A stretch of 64,000 nt of DNA, taken from the IMG/VR virus record IMGVR_UViG_2802429139_000001; one strand, 5' to 3'. Shown one piece after another: positions 4,185 through 34,464 of this stretch. The notes under the pieces are model-generated. The model was not told where the DNA came from, ran no database searches, and saw nothing but the letters and a program-made list of their open reading frames with translations. Each line of letters starts with the position of its first letter. Position 1 is the stretch's first letter. The position numbers and the translations under genes were made by a program. The DNA comes from a virus.

Positions 4185-4388
4185 ATGGCCAAGAGGGTTT
4201 GGATCGATAACGGCGGAATGGTCACCTGCGACGAGCACTCGGGTATGTACATGCGTTTCGCCATCAAGGAGCGGCCCAGCGCGAAGCGGCACACCACACC
4301 TCTTGGTGTGTACGTCGCAGATGAGTCCGGAAAGTACGAGTGCGAAACTTGCGTCCCCTTCCACACGAGGAACCCAAATGCCCAGTAA
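4185..4388 (+). CDS. Small Zn-ribbon-like protein (67 aa; CDEH...CETC)
   Basis: AAAGGG RBS; stop overlaps start of next gene by 11 nt (translational coupling). Confidence 0.55.
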   Translation: MAKRVWIDNGGMVTCDEHSGMYMRFAIKERPSAKRHTTPLGVYVADESGKYECETCVPFHTRNPNAQ

Positions 4389-5400
4389 ATGGTCCAACGT
4401 GCTCCGCGGTGTCGCCTTTGGCGACGCGTGGGGCTACCGCAATGAATTCAGGTCGTACGCTCAGCTCACCCAGCACGGTCTCATGGGTCCTGCGCTGCCT
4501 GAGAAGCTGATCATCAGTGACGACACTCAGATGACGCTCGCGCTCGCGCGCGCTCTGCGCGGTGCGAGCGACAAGACTGACAGTGAGATCCGTGCCGACG
4601 TGCTTACGGAGTGGGTCAACTGGTACGGCGACCCTGACAACAACCGCGCACCTGGCAATACCTGCATGCGCGCGATCGACGCCATCAAGCAAGGTGCGCA
4701 CTGGCTAGACGCTGTGGTAGCCGACTCTGATGGTTGCGGAACCGTGATGCGTGTCAGCCCAGCGGCGCTCGTGAACAGTGAATTCCATAGCTGGCAAGGC
4801 ATTTCGACCTGGCAGGCTCTCACAACGCATGGATCACCGACAGGCGCGGCGGCATCACTGGTGGGTGCTGCCCTGATTCGGCTAGCACCCATGCCTGGCG
4901 ACACCGTGAACTACGCGCTGGACCTCACGCTTGAGGCTGTCGGCGATCCTGATGATCTGCTGCTGCATGGACTCGACGAGTGGATCGTCGAGAATGGCGA
5001 CTACTACGGTCCGGCTTATCAAGAGGGTGCACGTCGATTCATCACGCGCGGAATGCTGAATCTCGCGCACACGTTGGTAGACGCGGACATTGCGCTGAGA
5101 AACATTCGCGCGAAGGATCTAGATCCCTGGGACCTAGATCCGTGCGAGCTGGCAGGTCCGGGATGGCGTGCGCACCATGCGCTTTCAACCGCGCTGCTGT
5201 GCGTCGACCTTTTCCCGGAAGATCCGATCTCCGCGCTACGTCGCGCGACGGTCACCAGTGGAGACAGTGACTCGATCGCTGCGGTCGCTGGGGCCGTCCT
5301 CGGTGCGATCCATCCTGACCCCTGGCCTGACGGTTGGTTCGATCGACTGGAAACGCGCTACCAGAAAGAGATTTCAGAGGCAGAAGGGTTTGGGTTCTGA
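4378..5400 (+). CDS. ADP-ribosylglycohydrolase (DraG/ARH family)
   Basis: GVAFGDAWG, SDDTQM, C-terminal TSGDSDSIAAVAGAVLGA signatures of the ARH family. Confidence 0.85.
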   Translation: MPSKWSNVLRGVAFGDAWGYRNEFRSYAQLTQHGLMGPALPEKLIISDDTQMTLALARALRGASDKTDSEIRADVLTEWVNWYGDPDNNRAPGNTCMRAIDAIKQGAHWLDAVVADSDGCGTVMRVSPAALVNSEFHSWQGISTWQALTTHGSPTGAAASLVGAALIRLAPMPGDTVNYALDLTLEAVGDPDDLLLHGLDEWIVENGDYYGPAYQEGARRFITRGMLNLAHTLVDADIALRNIRAKDLDPWDLDPCELAGPGWRAHHALSTALLCVDLFPEDPISALRRATVTSGDSDSIAAVAGAVLGAIHPDPWPDGWFDRLETRYQKEISEAEGFGF

Positions 5401-29000: not shown

Positions 29001-29032
29001 ATTTTGGGCATGAAAAAGGCCCCTAACTATTT
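29001..29032 (-). terminator. Intrinsic terminator (GGCCCCTAAC...GTTAGGGGCC plus T5 on minus strand)
   Basis: 10-bp stem and U-run after 29060..29428. Confidence 0.65.
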
Positions 29033-29059
29033 GTTAGGGGCCGAACTCTGTTCTAAGAG

Positions 29060-29428
29060 TTAAATATTGGCGTTAAGCTCGATCGAAGAATCTTCGATGT
29101 CCGAGAGATTCGTCGTCGTCAACGTGCCGTCTTCATTCCACTCTGCACGCATCTGCTCGAAGGCGTCTTTCGCGGCACTCCCCTGCTGCAGCTCGCGACG
29201 AATTGACAGCGCGACGTACGCGTAAAGCATCTCGTCGCCATCTGCCACGTGCAGCAGACCACAAGCGTCTTCGTCGTTTGTCCAGAGTCGCCCCACTGGG
29301 TGTTCCAGCCCTGGGTCCTGGAACAGGTCCACGTAGCGTCCAGCGCCAATGCGCGCGCCGGGGTAATCCGGCTGGCTATAGAACGTGCCCAGCTCGGCGC
29401 TGATGATGTCGTATACGCCGTTGGGCAA
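29060..29428 (-). CDS. Hypothetical acidic protein, candidate immunity partner of upstream toxin-like domains
   Basis: Immediately downstream of MuF-toxin gene and ahead of terminator. Confidence 0.5.
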   Translation of the reverse strand: MPNGVYDIISAELGTFYSQPDYPGARIGAGRYVDLFQDPGLEHPVGRLWTNDEDACGLLHVADGDEMLYAYVALSIRRELQQGSAAKDAFEQMRAEWNEDGTLTTTNLSDIEDSSIELNANI

Positions 29429-29447
29429 CCAGCGTGTGGGGATGGGA

Positions 29448-32400
29448 TTAGACAGGTTGATCCACCACCTCCACGATCACGTCAACCTTGAACTGTGACG
29501 ACCCGGTTGACTTGCGCACTTCCAGCACCTTCATCTTCTGATTACGAGGAAGGATAACCTCGCGCTCGTGGGTTCCGACGGAGGTCAGTTGATCCATTCC
29601 ATCCGGTGTGCCTGACACGAAGATGCCGCGCTGACCGGGCTTCATCTTGTAGAGCACGCGAACCGGGTTGTGGAATGCCGGTGTGGTGGTGATTGACGTA
29701 GACAGGAAGGACTTGGACACGTACGTCTCACCCTCTAGCACCTTGAGCGCGTCGATGTCAGCGCCGAAACTGAACTTCATTCCCAGACTGTTCTCGTCGT
29801 TGAACTCGACAGCGTGCGTACCGCGGCTGAGCACGATGTGCTCCTCAAACGGATTGTGCTCGTAGAAAGCCGAATCGAGCGCCTTGGTTTTGGCTGACGG
29901 CACCTTGTCTTCGCGAGCGTGCGCGTTCATTGTGCTGTAGCCGCTGCCGGTGTACGACTTGATGGCGCTGTGCTGGTTGGATTTCCAAGCCGAGGCATTC
30001 TGTGGCGACATCAGCGAGCCGAACTGCTGCCACTCAACTGCCTTGCCGCTGGCATCGAAAACGTGCGGGTTGTCGGCAGACCCGACGGGAGCCTTGGAGT
30101 CGGCGATAACCGTCTTGCCGAGCTTGGTCAGCTCGCCAGCGGGCTGCTCATGTTCGGGTGTGTACTTCGTACCCTGTTTGATGACGACAGGTTTCGGCTG
30201 TTCTTTGATCTTGGAGTTACCCTGGGCTTTGAGCTTGTCTAGCGCCTTCTTGGCCATGTCGTCGCCGAGTGCGTCACCGTACTTGCCGAGCCATTTGGTC
30301 TGGACCCCAACGTCGTAGTAGCCCAACAGGTTCGCCAACTGATCGGTAGTGAGCGCCGCGATGCCGAACTCTTTGTCGAATTCGGGGATGGCCTCGGAGA
30401 GCTTGATACCCTTCTCGACCGCGTACGCCTTGACGGGCTGGAAGAACCCGCCAGAGCCGGCGTTCTTCAGGAACTCCTGTTCCCATTCGAGGATCTTGGC
30501 CGACTTCGTCGGATTGTTTGTAACGGGCTGCGCCACAGCTGGTGTCGCGTTACCGTTCTTCATCTGCCAGTACTGCGCGGGGGTCATCTTCGACAGTTGG
30601 GCGAAGTTGGCGGTGTCGCCCTTCTTCTTCGCCACGTACTTGGCCGACGCGAGCGCCTTGCCCGCCTTCTTCAGCACGTCCCCGTCTAGGATCGGAGTCG
30701 GCCCGGTCGGTATCGGAGACGGTGGCAGGAAATCGCCCTGGGTTATGTTCAGCCCCGGGGGCACGGTAATGACCTCACCCTTGACTTTGGTGTTCGTCAG
30801 ACGCTTCTCGACTGCCTTGATGTAATAGGAGCTCAGATCAGTTGCAAGACTGTTCTTTCGGGCAACAACTGCATCCAGGAACGCGTCAACATTGTTCGTC
30901 GCAATGTTGCCGTTCGCCTCGGCCAACAGCTTTCCCTGTTTGACTGCACCTTCGGCATAGGGCCGAAATAGATTGCGGATCTCCTTGTCTGGGATCGCTT
31001 GCAGACCTTGGATATAACTCGCTAGTTCGTCGCCCGAGGGATTGAGCAACTTACCGGGCTTGCCTTCGGCATACTGCCGAAACAGCGTGTTGTAGATGGG
31101 TTCTGGCGTGCCGTGCTTGACGTTGGGGTGGTAGTTCCAGTCCAGCGTGTCACCGCTGAAATACTTGAACGCTTGACCCTTGTCGATGCCGACGATCTCG
31201 CCGCCACCAGTGCGAATGAACTGTCCGGCGTGGCTGTCGTGGTTACCCATTAACCAGTCGAGCGCGTGATGCTTCTGGATGGTCAACAGATCGGCTTCAC
31301 TGATTGTGGACAGATCAACCCCAGATGGGAAGGCGCTCTTGCTGCCAGGAAACATGTACTGGACGGACTGGCGCTTACCGCCTACCGTCATGATGTACAT
31401 CGCTGGTGTCGTCAAGCCCGACTTCGCTTGCAGCTCAGCAGATGCCGCATCCAGCGTGACCAGGAATTGATCATTCGGATTCTTGGGACCCTTGACCAGC
31501 CACTTCTGAGACTGCGAGTCGGTGTACACCGTGGCGCCGTGCGTGCCGAGTACCTGACCGGTGCTGGCGAGCACGTTCGGTGAATCCGTCAGCTCGCCAA
31601 CGACGACCTTCGGCTTGGTCGCGGTGGATACCGTGCCGACTCCGGCGGTCGGCGCTGTCTCTGGCGTGGTGACCTTGGCGGTGGCCGTCGTCGTGGCCTT
31701 GGATGCGTTGCCGCCCTTGGATTGCGCGTACTCCGCGGGCGTCATCTTGGCCAGTGCGTTGTACTTGGCGGTGTCGCCCTTCTTTTTGGCCGCATGCTTG
31801 GCCGCCGCGAGTGCTTTAGCCGCCTTCTTGAGATCGACGTTCGCGGCCGCGTTGGCCATTGCGGTGACCTTCGCGGATGCCTTGGCTGCCGCGGCTGCCA
31901 TCTCAAGCAATGTCTGCTGTTCGTTGTAGACCTGCTCGGCCTTGAGCCACGCGACGGTATTGGCGGCGGCCTTCTTGTTGGCCACATACTTGGCCTGCGC
32001 TGCGGCCTTGGCCTTCTTCTTGGTGAAGTCCTTCTCAGCGACGAGCCACGCCGTCGCGTCGGTCTGGTACTGCTGCTCGGCCGCGAGCCATTCGGCAGTC
32101 GCCTTCTTCTTGGCGACGTACTTGGCCTGCGCTGCGGCCTTGGCCTTCTTCTTGGTGAAGTCCTTCTCAGCGACGAGCCACGTGGTCACGTCCGCCTGGT
32201 GCTGTTTCTCAGCGTCAAGCCACTTGGCGAGGTCCGCCGGTGCCGGTGACTTCTTGGTAGACATCGCTACCAGTGTTGGCCCGCTGCCTGACGCGGCCAG
32301 TTCGTTGGCCCGCATTTTCGACAGGACCGCGTTGAGCGTCGGCTTGATCTGCTCAGCTTCGAGCTGCTTGACCGTTTCGATGTACTCGGCGTCCCAGTCC

Positions 32401-32990
32401 TGGTAGTACCCCGGACGCTGGAACTTGAGCTTTCCGCGGGCGACGGCTGGCACGCAATGGCAGTTGTCATGACCCGCTTGCGCCGCGTGAGCGCTGCGGT
32501 AGACCGCTCCGCGGGTGGCCATCACTCGGCAGAACTCGCACGCTCCGGGCGACGCCAACCGCGAGTATTTGACTTTCTCGGTATCGGCGTTGCGCAGAAT
32601 CGTCGCGCGCGCGCCGTCGAACACCATGCGCTGTGCCGAACCCGTCAGCCTGGTCAGCGGATGGGCGGTGCCAGCGGCGCGGAACGCCCACTCAAGGGAG
32701 TTCATCATGCGGTCTTGCGACACCGCGTCGATCGCGGCTACCGCCTTGGGTGTGTACGGCTCATCGGGTGCCAGCTCGCCGTACCACTGATTGGCGACCT
32801 CGGATGCGGCCTCGACATAGGGCTGTACTACCTCGGGAAAGACTGCCTTGAATGCGTCCAGCAGGTCGGCAGCGGTAGCACCGTCGCTTTCGAGCTTCTT
32901 GTACAGGCCCACAAGGTCTTTGGTGGACAGCGTCGAAAGATCACCCAGGACGCTCTGGAGGGCTTGAGCCTGCTCAACCAGGCTGGCCAA
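29448..32990 (-). CDS. MuF-family minor capsid protein fused to internal repeats, a PI3/PI4-kinase-like domain and a C-terminal C3/VIP2-like ADP-ribosyltransferase domain
   Basis: N-term ACEFCRVMATRGAVY...HDNCHCVP (Phage_Mu_F); GNHDSHAGQF...VGIDKGQAF; YTGSGYSTMNAHAR, FLSTS, HEREVILP. Confidence 0.8.
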   Translation of the reverse strand: MASLVEQAQALQSVLGDLSTLSTKDLVGLYKKLESDGATAADLLDAFKAVFPEVVQPYVEAASEVANQWYGELAPDEPYTPKAVAAIDAVSQDRMMNSLEWAFRAAGTAHPLTRLTGSAQRMVFDGARATILRNADTEKVKYSRLASPGACEFCRVMATRGAVYRSAHAAQAGHDNCHCVPAVARGKLKFQRPGYYQDWDAEYIETVKQLEAEQIKPTLNAVLSKMRANELAASGSGPTLVAMSTKKSPAPADLAKWLDAEKQHQADVTTWLVAEKDFTKKKAKAAAQAKYVAKKKATAEWLAAEQQYQTDATAWLVAEKDFTKKKAKAAAQAKYVANKKAAANTVAWLKAEQVYNEQQTLLEMAAAAAKASAKVTAMANAAANVDLKKAAKALAAAKHAAKKKGDTAKYNALAKMTPAEYAQSKGGNASKATTTATAKVTTPETAPTAGVGTVSTATKPKVVVGELTDSPNVLASTGQVLGTHGATVYTDSQSQKWLVKGPKNPNDQFLVTLDAASAELQAKSGLTTPAMYIMTVGGKRQSVQYMFPGSKSAFPSGVDLSTISEADLLTIQKHHALDWLMGNHDSHAGQFIRTGGGEIVGIDKGQAFKYFSGDTLDWNYHPNVKHGTPEPIYNTLFRQYAEGKPGKLLNPSGDELASYIQGLQAIPDKEIRNLFRPYAEGAVKQGKLLAEANGNIATNNVDAFLDAVVARKNSLATDLSSYYIKAVEKRLTNTKVKGEVITVPPGLNITQGDFLPPSPIPTGPTPILDGDVLKKAGKALASAKYVAKKKGDTANFAQLSKMTPAQYWQMKNGNATPAVAQPVTNNPTKSAKILEWEQEFLKNAGSGGFFQPVKAYAVEKGIKLSEAIPEFDKEFGIAALTTDQLANLLGYYDVGVQTKWLGKYGDALGDDMAKKALDKLKAQGNSKIKEQPKPVVIKQGTKYTPEHEQPAGELTKLGKTVIADSKAPVGSADNPHVFDASGKAVEWQQFGSLMSPQNASAWKSNQHSAIKSYTGSGYSTMNAHAREDKVPSAKTKALDSAFYEHNPFEEHIVLSRGTHAVEFNDENSLGMKFSFGADIDALKVLEGETYVSKSFLSTSITTTPAFHNPVRVLYKMKPGQRGIFVSGTPDGMDQLTSVGTHEREVILPRNQKMKVLEVRKSTGSSQFKVDVIVEVVDQPV

Positions 32991-34464
32991 CAGATGCCGC
33001 TCTACGGTCAGCCAGGGACGCTACCTGGCTGTCCTGGCGTGCATTCTCGACACCTTGACGGACCGACGCGACGAGGTTTGTGACCGTCGTCTTCTTATCG
33101 TCGATCTCCATCTGTCGTTGATCGGCCCGGCTGATGCCCAGCTTGTCGCGGGTGACGCGCGAGGTTGGGGTGTAGACGCCCTTGTCGATGAGTTTGGTCA
33201 CCGCGTCGGATGTGGCGGCGAAGGTTGGTGTCGCGGCGTCGCGCCACTGCGGGCGCACCTTGCGAATCTCGTCGGGTAGTTCGTTGAACTTCTTGCCCTC
33301 ACGGACCATCACGCACAGCCGCGCGGTCTCCGACCAGCCGCGGCCGAATGTCTTCTGGCGCTGCTCTGCGCGCTTGACGTGGCGGCCCTCTAGTGACCGG
33401 ATTGCGTCGGCAGACGGCGGGTTGTCTGTCTCGAATCCCAGATAGTTTGCAGGGACTGCTATTTCAGACGAGACGAGCTGGCTGAGCGTGCGCATCTGGC
33501 CGAAGAACGATTCCAGGCTGGCGCCCTTGAATTCCTTGATATCCGGGATCTCCCCGTACTCGTCGCGCTCCAACGCGATCATGCGGCCGATGTAGGACTT
33601 CCACGCCGGAACTGGCTTACCGTCCTCGCCGACAAAGAACGATTCCTTCGCGCCGAGCACCGCGCGCTGTGGCGATGCCAGGTACTCGCGCGCCACTTCC
33701 ATGTTGGCTAGGGTTCGCATGCCCGACTGCGTATGCGAGATAAGCGTTTCGGTGATTTCGGAGTGGCCATTGCGGCCACGCGCACCCGACCGCGGCCGGT
33801 TGATCATCTGGGCGACCAGCACGCGCTCTAGGTTGTGCTTGTTGCGGTCAACCACGCGCATGTTGCCCACGCCCGCGGCGCTGAGTTCCATCGGGACGCA
33901 TTCCAGGGCGATGATTTCGTTGGGCAAAATCAGCCGCCCGCCGACCACACGCTGCTCACGGTCAACGATCTGGAGGAACGCCGAGGTGGCACGCCGGGTT
34001 CGGGGGTCGTAGATCGCGGTCATGTTCCGCGGCGACTCGACCGTCACGACCACTTCGGGCTCGTCATCGAGGCCGGAAGACACCGCCACAAAGGATGTTC
34101 CATACATCAAGCCGTCTGTGTGGTTGACATCAGACTCGACATCGAGATCGTTCTCCAGGAAGATCTCATCGAGGCCCAGCGGATCGCGGTCCTCGCCGTC
34201 ACCCTCGTATGACCAGCCCTCAAAGTTCAGCCGCTCGACCAAGCTGTCAACGGCGACGGCGGGCCAGCCGACACAGCACATCAGATTGGAAAGTGTTGGT
34301 GGAATGGCGATCTTGAGATCTTCCATTCGGCGCTTGGCCTCGTAATACTGCTCTTTGATCAGGTTTTCGCCCTGGTGCTTCTGGAGCTGAGTAGTCAGAT
34401 CCATCAGTACGGCTTGTTCGTCCTTCGACAACTGAAGCGACGGCAGCGCGATTGCAGTGGTCAT
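32974..34464 (-). CDS. Portal protein
   Basis: Size and position between TerL and MuF. Confidence 0.85.
   Translation of the reverse strand: MTTAIALPSLQLSKDEQAVLMDLTTQLQKHQGENLIKEQYYEAKRRMEDLKIAIPPTLSNLMCCVGWPAVAVDSLVERLNFEGWSYEGDGEDRDPLGLDEIFLENDLDVESDVNHTDGLMYGTSFVAVSSGLDDEPEVVVTVESPRNMTAIYDPRTRRATSAFLQIVDREQRVVGGRLILPNEIIALECVPMELSAAGVGNMRVVDRNKHNLERVLVAQMINRPRSGARGRNGHSEITETLISHTQSGMRTLANMEVAREYLASPQRAVLGAKESFFVGEDGKPVPAWKSYIGRMIALERDEYGEIPDIKEFKGASLESFFGQMRTLSQLVSSEIAVPANYLGFETDNPPSADAIRSLEGRHVKRAEQRQKTFGRGWSETARLCVMVREGKKFNELPDEIRKVRPQWRDAATPTFAATSDAVTKLIDKGVYTPTSRVTRDKLGISRADQRQMEIDDKKTTVTNLVASVRQGVENARQDSQVASLADRRAASVGQPG

Follow-up and report, generated by a model that had tools for sequence, protein, structure and literature searches.

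Virion-borne effectors have precedents in T4 Alt, SPP1 gp7, the MuF toxins, and the polyvalent proteins (PMC5512222, PMC5576092, PMC9503650). The MuF polymorphic toxins include a MuF-ADP-ribosyltransferase (ART) fusion, the "EFV toxin" of an Enterococcus faecalis V583 prophage (Jamet et al. 2017, PMC5576092). In polyvalent proteins, ART is the commonest modifying domain, fusions to MuF and portal domains occur, and some members carry kinases, which are either from a C-lobe-less Ser/Thr/Tyr kinase clade (Verrucomicrobia, Chlamydia, and Bacteroidetes) or zeta-toxin kinases fused to MuF (PMC5512222, PMC9503650). Phage T4 packages the ExE-type ART Alt in its head and injects it with the DNA, and Alt modifies host proteins on arginine (PMC5512222). 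SEA-PHAGES annotations include a [quoted passage not shown] for example, Microbacterium phage Cicada gp5. Neither MuF-ART head proteins nor polyvalent phage effectors are a new concept, but to our knowledge, almost none of them has been tested experimentally.

We analyzed a 64,000-nucleotide stretch of viral DNA (the window) that is 100% identical to Mycobacterium phage prophiFSIL01-1, an integrated prophage of Mycobacterium abscessus. The genes of interest lie in the order terminase, portal, gp53, gp54, scaffold, and capsid. The gp53 gene (29448..32990, minus strand) has a TTG start and encodes 1,180 aa; its first 17 nt are shared with the end of the portal gene (32974..34464), and gp53 thus comes immediately after the portal gene within the packaging/head module. 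The open reading frame (ORF) is as a preliminary description had reported it, with all of the peptides quoted there at the expected residues. From its N terminus, the polyvalent head protein gp53 has a MuF-type anchor, Lys/Ala-rich repeats, a kinase-like domain, and an ART. The domains previously proposed for a MuF-effector fusion were supported, but the MuF-ART fusion was already known in GenBank, which labels prophiFSIL01-1 gp53 "minor capsid and ADP-ribosyltransferase fusion"; GenBank and SEA-PHAGES also name it a minor capsid (MuF-like) protein. We consider it reasonably probable that gp53 is a virion-borne multienzyme effector, a polyvalent MuF-family protein, with gp54 providing immunity and an ADP-ribosylglycohydrolase (ARH) removing the mark.

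The anchor (aa 7 to 203; 32382..32972, minus strand) matches Pfam VG15 (PF25310), a MuF-type head-morphogenesis domain, with an E value of 7.4e-38 (131 bits versus a cut-off of 26) and carries a CxxC...HDNCHC motif. This region had been taken for Phage_Mu_F, and the VG15 match supports a MuF-type character, but PF04233 (Phage_Mu_F) itself gave no match on gp53 at an E value of ≤1 in the Pfam search, and NCBIfam gave none either. The same N-terminal position is held by PF04233 in related kinase-ART proteins. The anchor also matches head-and-packaging PHROG families 1752/193 and is homologous to the VG15-type N termini of viral contigs L033, L035, and L037. Between anchor and kinase lies a Lys/Ala-rich linker (aa 236 to 460; 31611..32285, minus strand) with 28% Ala, 16% Lys, and a pI of 9.9, in a protein whose overall pI is 9.12. 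The two internal repeats noted earlier are real, are ~43 aa long, and have 30/43 residues in common: copy 1 (31704-31832, minus strand) is inside the linker, and copy 2 (aa 773 to 815; 30546..30674, minus strand) begins the second effector segment, the DNA repeat (30547-30674 and 31705-31832) having 77% identity. A stretch related to copy 2 sits between the kinase and ART of a Mycolicibacterium toxin. The linker also contains a tandem 44-aa Lys/Ala-rich repeat (31962-32225, minus strand; 35/44 residues identical; two units of 132 nt, 85% identity), which was absent from the preliminary description.

The next segment (aa 461 to 754; 30729..31610, minus strand) is predicted to adopt a PI4K-II/CtkA/HipA-like kinase fold that includes the β3 Lys, the Asp and Asn of the catalytic loop, and an Asp for metal binding; its predicted active site comprises K500, D585, H587, Q590, and D603. 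The best fold match is the lipid kinase PI4K-IIα. Neither PF00454 nor PF07804 attained its cut-off on gp53 (best, HipA_C with an E value of 0.19 and 11.8 bits versus 30.5), so the evidence for the kinase assignment, which had been proposed before, is the predicted structure together with motif conservation. A profile search of PDB sequences returned no match. Some members of the kinase-like family, which has ~1,570 cluster representatives, do reach HipA_C at an E value of 5e-8; because profile membership fails for gp53, we regard its domain as like the PI3K/PI4K/HipA kinases by predicted fold and as belonging to a separate family without a Pfam model. Standalone relatives of the domain are found inside tail or structural modules, in keeping with a virion location.

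The C terminus of gp53 (aa 933 to 1180; 29451..30194, minus strand) is a C2/VIP2-type ART with a conserved N-terminal extension. PF03496 (ADPrib_exo_Tox) matches the core (aa 1002 to 1171) with an E value of 6.8e-16 and 58.6 bits, above the gathering cut-off of 23.4, which bears out the ART family suggested earlier. Alignment to C2-I toxin and Lmo0066 gave the catalytic residues R1056, S1097-T-S1099, and E1142-x-E1144, the R-S-E arrangement of C2/C3/VIP2/Alt-type enzymes, and R1056, S1097, S1099, E1142, and E1144 are kept in 23 to 24 of 24 relatives. The STS and ExE parts of the previously proposed triad held, but the catalytic arginine is R1056 (VLSRGT) and not the NAHAR arginine; the latter, R1026 of YTGSGYSTMNAHAR, is put by the alignment in an upstream Y..Y..N..LR helix. 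The ExE motif is associated with arginine specificity in this ART class, and from this motif, the gp53 ART would be an arginine-specific enzyme.

The preliminary description had presented kinase plus ART as an unfamiliar combination. Our literature search found no paper describing the pairing, but a large unannotated family has it as its prevailing architecture. Among the best 146 family representatives, the kinase precedes an ART in 94, the ART is C-terminal in 91, and none has the reverse order. In a sample of 29 family members, 17 had an ART and 14 had Phage_Mu_F or VG15, and kinase and ART were encoded in one ORF in 15/27 viral contigs. Lytic M. smegmatis phages, e.g., Onyinye, bear the same module. 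A 6,354-aa WXG100_2 protein of Mycolicibacterium sp. XJ870 has a C-terminal part arranged as kinase-ART-ART-kinase-ART, and the whole 715-aa kinase-ART unit of gp53 shows 38 to 40% identity to two tandem units in this toxin. One kinase copy of the toxin lacks the K, N, and D residues, and noncatalytic copies are therefore tolerated. Across the family, the kinase domain is recurrently linked to NAD/ADP-ribose domains (C2/VIP2-type ART, Scabin-like ART, and NUDIX, with an ARH nearby in Phrappuccino).

The acidic 122-aa ORF noted in the preliminary description, gp54 (29060..29428, minus strand; pI 4.08), exists and starts 19 nt downstream of gp53. Translation may in fact begin farther upstream, at an ATC (29459-29461) that follows a GGAGG. 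An intrinsic-terminator-like hairpin (29013..29042, minus strand) closes the gp53-gp54 pair ahead of the scaffold gene; it has a 10-bp GC-rich stem (29018-29042), a 5-nt loop, T5 at 29013-29017, a ΔG of -21.3 kcal/mol, and a z score of -4.4, and it recurs in every one of the five MabR prophages, McProf and FVLQ showing paired changes. The hairpin and T5 recognized earlier are real, but the coordinates given then, 29001..29032, span the 3' half only. The short gap between gp53 and gp54, their shared strand, and the terminator directly after gp54 make it probable that the two genes are cotranscribed.

Homologues of gp54 lie directly after an ART-ending ORF in 12/13 loci, which are five MabR prophages, Onyinye, Sixama, Morgana, three metagenome contigs, and the WXG100 toxin. 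The exception is L016, where the homologue follows a 152-aa non-ART ORF, and there were no homologues at 6 kinase-only loci. The Morgana homologue follows an ART outside any structural module, and a homologue with 52% identity overlaps and follows the XJ870 WXG100 toxin gene. The gp54 gene adjoins the toxin gene, and its family moves with the toxin domain across delivery domains: it accompanies the ART in one type VII-secretion toxin as well as in four phage lineages. An immunity gene should show this pattern, which is consistent with the earlier reading of gp54's position. Since the family follows ART-ending proteins and never kinase-only proteins, gp54 is probably the ART immunity protein. 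The predicted fold of gp54 gave no functional clue.

An ARH gene had been reported at 4378..5400, and this plus-strand gene does encode an ADP-ribosylglycohydrolase (PF03747, E value of 2.3e-46). It lies ~24 kb from the ART, on the opposite strand and in a different expression block. Its matches to TIGR02662 (DraG; 51.6 bits versus a cut-off of 337) and NF041672 (Tri1; 42.4 versus 490) are both weak. ARH is present in 13/13 of the phage records with the closest ARTs and in only 27 of 50,697 records overall, and the ART-ARH co-occurrence spans four phage lineages. ARH is not obligatory, since Onyinye-like phages lack it although they carry both the ART and gp54. The gene sits in a region that the MabR papers regard as expressed in lysogeny, and the McProf lysogen RNA-seq paper makes no statement on ARH expression in lysogeny.

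In the explanation that we favor, the MuF-type domain would set a few gp53 copies inside the capsid beside the portal, with the Lys/Ala-rich repeats serving as flexible linkers that are possibly DNA associated. We infer that gp53 passes into the mycobacterial cell along with the injected phage DNA, where its PI4K-II/CtkA/HipA-like kinase and its C2/VIP2/Alt-like arginine-specific ART, a unit of ~700 aa that appears to be inherited jointly, would act on host targets. As the cognate immunity protein, gp54 would keep the ART harmless in the virion-producing cell, and the prophage ARH could strip off the ADP-ribose mark, for example, during the establishment of lysogeny or upon superinfection of a lysogen. 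It is doubtful that the kinase and ART are one obligate two-enzyme unit with a shared substrate, and not independent effectors; the kinase might, for example, add phosphate to the ADP-ribosylated target or to the ADP-ribose itself, producing a removal-resistant mark or a new signal, or it might make the target ready for the ART. Such a unit would explain the kinase-then-ART order in 94/94 representatives, the unit duplication in the type VII-secretion toxin, and the recurrent fusions to Scabin-like ART and NUDIX.

Other readings of the locus differ on what gp53, its kinase fold, or gp54 does. A classical MuF polymorphic toxin for interbacterial competition would kill or arrest nonimmune cells, with gp54 and/or ARH shielding lysogens, and would be a weapon and not a means of host takeover. 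A temperate phage with a C-terminal toxin domain and then an ORF of <150 aa is the arrangement of Jamet et al. (PMC5576092), the kinase-ART-gp54 cassette also terminates the WXG100 (type VII secretion) toxin, and the ARH region is the one regarded as lysogenically expressed. However, gp54 is in the late structural block and is not among the McProf genes listed as expressed in lysogeny, the module is also present in lytic phages, Onyinye among them, and the phage's own infection would suffer from a lethal toxin; we consider a competition toxin unlikely. Kinase folds are able to catalyze other reactions, and the gp53 domain might be no protein kinase. It could instead phosphorylate lipids, as a phosphatidylinositol kinase directed at the mycobacterial membrane, which is rich in PI; it could work together with the ART as an AMPylase-like enzyme or as a phosphotransferase directed at nucleotides or ADP-ribose; or it could be a pseudokinase with a role in regulation or target binding. 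The lipid kinase as top fold match, the persistent association with NAD/ADP-ribose domains, and the Mycolicibacterium copy without K, N, and D point in this direction, which we rate as quite unlikely. We think it very unlikely that gp54 is an assembly chaperone or minor head component that loads the ART-bearing protein into capsids and not an immunity protein: its gene is inside the head block, its fold is uninformative, and its acidity, set against the basic gp53 and linkers, would suit a chaperone, but the Morgana homologue is away from any structural module, another comes after a WXG100 toxin that ends in an ART and is encoded on a bacterial chromosome, a setting without a capsid, and none accompanies kinase-only virion proteins.

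The locus adds a large kinase-fold family that occurs mostly in a fixed kinase-then-ART unit, often MuF anchored, a new family of small proteins with the behavior of an ART immunity partner, and a phyletic link of this ART type with a rare phage ARH. The gp54 family occurs with both capsid-delivered and type VII-secreted toxins, which indicates that phage heads and the secretion systems of bacteria trade effector cassettes within Mycobacteriales. M. abscessus is a drug-resistant pathogen and a target of phage therapy, and its prophages are thought to affect fitness. Phage-injected proteins that rewire or poison M. abscessus, and the antidotes of lysogens, would matter for superinfection outcomes and for the choice of therapeutic phages.

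The gp53 kinase-like domain has only 13 to 14% identity to PI4K type II alpha, Helicobacter pylori CtkA, and the HipA-family kinases and differs from them in being embedded in a phage structural protein and in reaching no Pfam model at threshold. Like the MuF polymorphic toxins (PMC5576092), gp53 is from a temperate phage, is encoded after the portal gene, and has an N-terminal MuF-type domain, a C-terminal ART, and a small downstream ORF as proposed immunity gene. Unlike those toxins, gp53 has a PI4K-II/HipA-like kinase between anchor and ART, Lys/Ala-rich repeats, and an anchor of the VG15 and not the PF04233 family; the word "kinase" occurs 0 times in Jamet et al. (PMC5576092), where no kinase is listed. 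The polyvalent proteins (Iyer et al. 2017, PMC5512222; Iyer et al. 2022, PMC9503650) are likewise large and virion associated, with several effector enzymes strung together, but their kinases differ from the gp53 family, and these two papers describe no fixed kinase-then-ART order, tandem unit duplication, or dedicated immunity family. As in Tre1-Tri1 and DraT-DraG, an ExE-type ART and an ARH-superfamily enzyme share one genome; here, in contrast, the small nonenzymatic gp54 holds the immunity position, and ARH is distant. PHROG 802, "Alt-like," matches gp53 weakly, and T4 Alt itself is not MuF anchored and is without a kinase partner; we know of no dedicated immunity protein for Alt. The WXG100/LXG-type (type VII secretion) toxins of Actinobacteria resemble gp53 through the XJ870 protein, with its kinase-ART units and then a gp54 homologue, and differ in delivery, for which these toxins have a secretion signal and gp53 has a capsid anchor.

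The region 29001..32990 is 100% identical to its counterpart in prophiFSIL01-1 (BK061311.1), a Mycobacteroides abscessus strain 1009 prophage assigned to cluster MabR, and the DNA identity is 76-90% in four relatives (McProf, prophiFSAT01-1, prophiFVLQ01-1 [FVLQ], and prophiFSQJ01-1 [FSQJ]). The genes on the - strand run in the order large terminase, portal (32974..34464), gp53 (29448..32990), gp54 (29060..29428), scaffold, and major capsid. GenBank annotates gp53 as a [quoted passage not shown] and the 122-amino-acid (aa) gp54 as a "hypothetical protein," and neither is discussed in the MabR cluster paper (PMC9434293). Since gp54 lies 19 nucleotides (nt) downstream of gp53 on the same strand and ahead of a terminator, the two genes are probably expressed from one late transcript. 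The terminator, a hairpin with a 10-bp GC-rich stem and a T5 tail at 29013..29042, was correctly recognized in the preliminary description, but the coordinates reported there took in only its 3' half. The hairpin has a predicted dG of -21.3 kcal/mol (z = -4.4, with none of 200 shuffles folding as well) and is kept in all five MabR prophages. In McProf, an additional 46-aa gene in reverse orientation, gp56 (L004 1273..1413), separates the gp54 homolog from the scaffold gene; published RNA-seq reported this gene to be expressed in lysogeny (PMC8191103), and it has no counterpart in the window.

All of the peptides originally quoted as landmarks are present in gp53. A Pfam search matched aa 7-203 to VG15 (PF25310, a MuF-type head protein family; E = 7.4e-38), which upholds the proposed MuF-type domain but not a match to PF04233 (Phage_Mu_F) itself, and an NCBIfam search returned nothing for gp53 or gp54. 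When VG15-type and PF04233-type N termini were compared by jackhmmer in a small local set, linkage was found among the VG15-type proteins only. The two internal repeats noted previously are 43 aa each, with 30 of 43 positions identical, and are also seen as a 128-nt DNA repeat. A second repeat type is a tandem pair of 44-aa units (35/44 identical; consensus WLxAExxxQxDxxxWLVAEKDFTKKKAKAAAQAKYVAxKKA) within a linker of 28% Ala and 16% Lys, encoded by a 132-nt tandem repeat with 85% identity at 31962..32225. The composition of these Lys/Ala-rich units resembles that of histone-like or HupB-type tails, and on this basis they may bind DNA.

At the C terminus of gp53, aa 1002-1171 matched ADPrib_exo_Tox (PF03496; E = 6.8e-16). 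When gp53 is aligned to C2-I toxin and Listeria Lmo0066, the catalytic Arg falls at R1056 (VLSRGT), the S-T-S motif at 1097-1099, and the E-x-E motif at 1142-1144; R1056, S1097, E1142, and E1144 are conserved in 24/24 relatives and S1099 in 23/24. The R/STS/ExE triad of the preliminary description is therefore present and conserved, but the Arg cited there, R1026, is part of an upstream Y..Y..N..LR helix. With this residue and the terminator coordinates corrected, the overall interpretation first offered for the locus is supported. An ExE motif marks enzymes that target arginine, among them C2-I, VIP2, iota toxin, and T4 Alt.

Pfam reported no match between VG15 and ADPrib_exo_Tox, and PDB sequence searches with whole gp53, the kinase segment alone, or a family profile gave nothing meaningful. 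The sole trace left by sequence methods was a subthreshold HipA_C match (E = 0.19) over "LMGNHDSH," and among the methods tried, only fold comparison recognized this middle domain. A database search returned 30 relatives of about 42% identity, all unannotated, whose alignment has the invariant blocks WLVK, QKHxxLDWxxxNHDxH, and GIDKGQ. An AlphaFold2 model built from this alignment was confident (pLDDT 89, pTM 0.88) and has the kinase fold that had been suspected, with K500 at the end of strand 3, D585, H587, and Q590 in the loop after a long helix, and D603 after the next strand pair. Across 39 nonidentical domains, D585 and H587 are conserved in all 39, K500 and D603 in 38 each, and position 590 is always N or Q. 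Given the modeled fold and the placement and conservation of these residues, we predict that the domain is catalytically active as a phosphotransferase and belongs to the PI3/4K-HipA-CtkA class. No existing sequence family includes it.

The kinase-ADP-ribosyltransferase (ART) architecture is unchanged in the five MabR prophages, and the possibility that it is confined to this cluster was ruled out by IMG/VR loci and a family-wide profile search. The kinase is encoded at 27 IMG/VR loci, and at 15 of these the same giant open reading frame (ORF) encodes an ART (14 detected by a custom ART profile and one, L049, by Pfam). Pfam found Phage_Mu_F, kinase, and ART together in the contigs L029, L030, L034, and L038, and VG15, kinase, and ART in L035. 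The exhaustive kinase-profile search, which covered 1.84 billion representatives, gave 1,573 family members, 509 of them at E ≤ 1e-30, mostly within proteins of 1,000-2,400 aa. Among the best 146 of these 1,573, a gp53-type ART is present in 94, always after the kinase and C-terminal in 91, and 25 of the 146 have at least two kinase copies. Pfam analysis of an every-fourth sample (n = 29) found ADPrib_exo_Tox in 17, Phage_Mu_F in 12, HipA_C in 3 (best E = 5e-8), VG15 in 2, and NUDIX in 1. Far from being unusual, as was first supposed, the pairing of kinase and ART is the predominant architecture in a large family that has no model. We found this coupling described neither in the surveys of MuF toxins, polymorphic toxins, polyvalent proteins, and viral NAD/ADP-ribose nor through a keyword search.

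Onyinye gp16, a 1,340-aa protein of a Mycobacterium smegmatis phage annotated just as an ADP-ribosyltransferase, has a kinase with 36% identity (E = 4e-47) and an ART with 27% identity (E = 3e-14) to those of gp53, and no MuF-type domain was detected in it. Other family members have different partners: an Actinomycetota metagenome-assembled genome encodes the kinase fused to a Scabin-like ART, NUDIX, and glutamine deamidase (L020 6609..13487), a viral contig encodes Phage_Mu_F, NUDIX, and kinase in one protein (L048 5472..10409), and an uncultured myovirus-like phage encodes a standalone 416-aa kinase-family protein (L013 5681..12482). A 774-aa Sixama protein in BFVD matches the kinase fold distantly (Foldseek E = 1.3e-7) and was missed by the kinase profile; 774 aa is the length of Sixama gp73 (L010 1..1830), and the ART gene gp75 lies two genes further downstream.

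The cassette is also present in a 6,354-aa protein of Mycolicibacterium sp. XJ870 (JBEFTI010000003.1; L015 1..6402), which has an N-terminal WXG100_2 domain, a type VII secretion signal, and SecA-like and glutamine-deamidase matches. Its final 2,001 residues are arranged kinase-ART-ART-kinase-ART, and gp53 463-1177 aligns as a whole segment to two tandem units with 38-40% identity. The second kinase copy, the sole degenerate copy seen, looks like a pseudokinase: its Lys, loop Asn, and metal-binding Asp are gone (CRVR, SRHDAH, and AAGKGQ). The third ART has SMS in place of STS.

The acidic 122-aa ORF previously placed in the immunity position, gp54, exists and has a pI of 4.08. The ORF directly after the Onyinye ART gene is homologous to it (E = 4e-11), and homologs also directly follow the ART genes of the Gordonia phages Sixama and Morgana, whose ART proteins lack the kinase. 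A gp54 profile search found 33 further clusters of 122-138 aa, and in four of the five contexts examined the member directly follows an ART-ending protein (the WXG100 toxin of XJ870, where the homolog has 52% identity and overlaps the toxin stop, and three phage contigs). In the fifth, L016 (5546..6411), a homolog with 46% identity follows a 152-aa non-ART ORF beside a phage integrase and may be an orphan immunity gene. Polymorphic-toxin immunity genes are defined by tracking the toxin domain whatever the delivery domain (PMC5576092, PMC3482391), and judged by this pattern of neighbors, gp54 is probably the ART immunity protein. That gp54 instead partners the kinase was ruled out, because in Sixama and Morgana it accompanies proteins that have the ART but no kinase, and no homolog was found at kinase-only loci (the standalone kinases of tail or structural modules, and Phrappuccino gp195). 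A structural search with the gp54 model (pLDDT 81) gave no informative match.

A gp54 broken beside an intact ART in FSQJ would speak against immunity, and GenBank cuts the FSQJ homolog into genes 55 and 56 (L002 1560..1925), one in the wrong frame. This reading was ruled out by a gapless DNA alignment and an open, conserved frame with 72% identity, and the split looks like an annotation artifact that arose because a canonical start codon is absent. The annotated gp54 TTG is missing from FVLQ and FSQJ, and FSQJ has no ATG, GTG, or TTG in the first 36 codons. The N-terminal motif of the family, M-x4-P-I-T/P-P-N/R-W-L, has its MabR equivalent, I-N-L-S-N-P-I-P-T-R-W-L, upstream of the annotated TTG (29428..29479, - strand). 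GGAGG-N6-ATC is common to the five MabR prophages, and its ATC lies at 29459-29461. In the stretch between gp53 and gp54 that is regarded as intergenic, most substitutions are silent when read in the gp54 frame. Together, these features suggest that gp54 initiates at a noncanonical ATC overlapping the final codons of gp53.

The gene at 4378..5400 (+ strand) encodes an ADP-ribosylglycohydrolase (ARH; E = 2.3e-46), as proposed, and its suggested link to the ART is backed as co-occurrence but not as mechanism. ARH homologs are present in only 27 of 50,697 phage records, and they occur in all 13 whose full-length ART matches are the closest; these 13 span four lineages (five MabR, Morgana, Aleemily, Cafasso, ObLaDi, two GMA2, and two Sixama). 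Onyinye-like phages have no ARH, and ARH is therefore accessory. Matches of the window ARH to DraG and Tri1 models were far below cutoffs, and the McProf RNA-seq paper makes no statement on ARH expression in lysogens. In Phrappuccino and Settecandela, an ARH gene precedes the gene for a kinase-bearing giant protein by four genes; in Phrappuccino (L008 1515..12450) these are gp191 and gp195 (2,030 aa, N-terminal kinase), gp195 adjoins the "virion structural protein" gp194, and no ART was detected in that interval.

On the model of SPP1 gp7, T4 Alt, MuF toxins, and polyvalent proteins (PMC5512222, PMC5576092, PMC9503650), we propose that gp53 would be positioned at the portal in a few copies by its MuF-type domain and would exit the capsid with the DNA. 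As infection begins, the kinase and the arginine-directed ART would act on targets in the host, with gp54 presumably neutralizing the ART in the producing cell and ARH perhaps removing the ADP-ribose mark later or in lysogens. The standalone L013 kinase gene, with tail sheath/tube genes on one side and a putative tape-measure gene (775 aa) on the other, fits a virion-delivered role for the kinase. The sequence analysis establishes which domains are present, how well their active sites are conserved, the order of the genes, and the patterns of co-occurrence; packaging, ejection, the two activities with their targets, and neutralization by gp54 are inferred. The MuF-ART fusion is already annotated in GenBank; as far as we could establish, what is new is the family of kinase-fold domains, the fixed pairing of this kinase with the ART, the family of probable immunity proteins to which gp54 belongs, and a cassette common to this phage protein and a type VII-secreted toxin.
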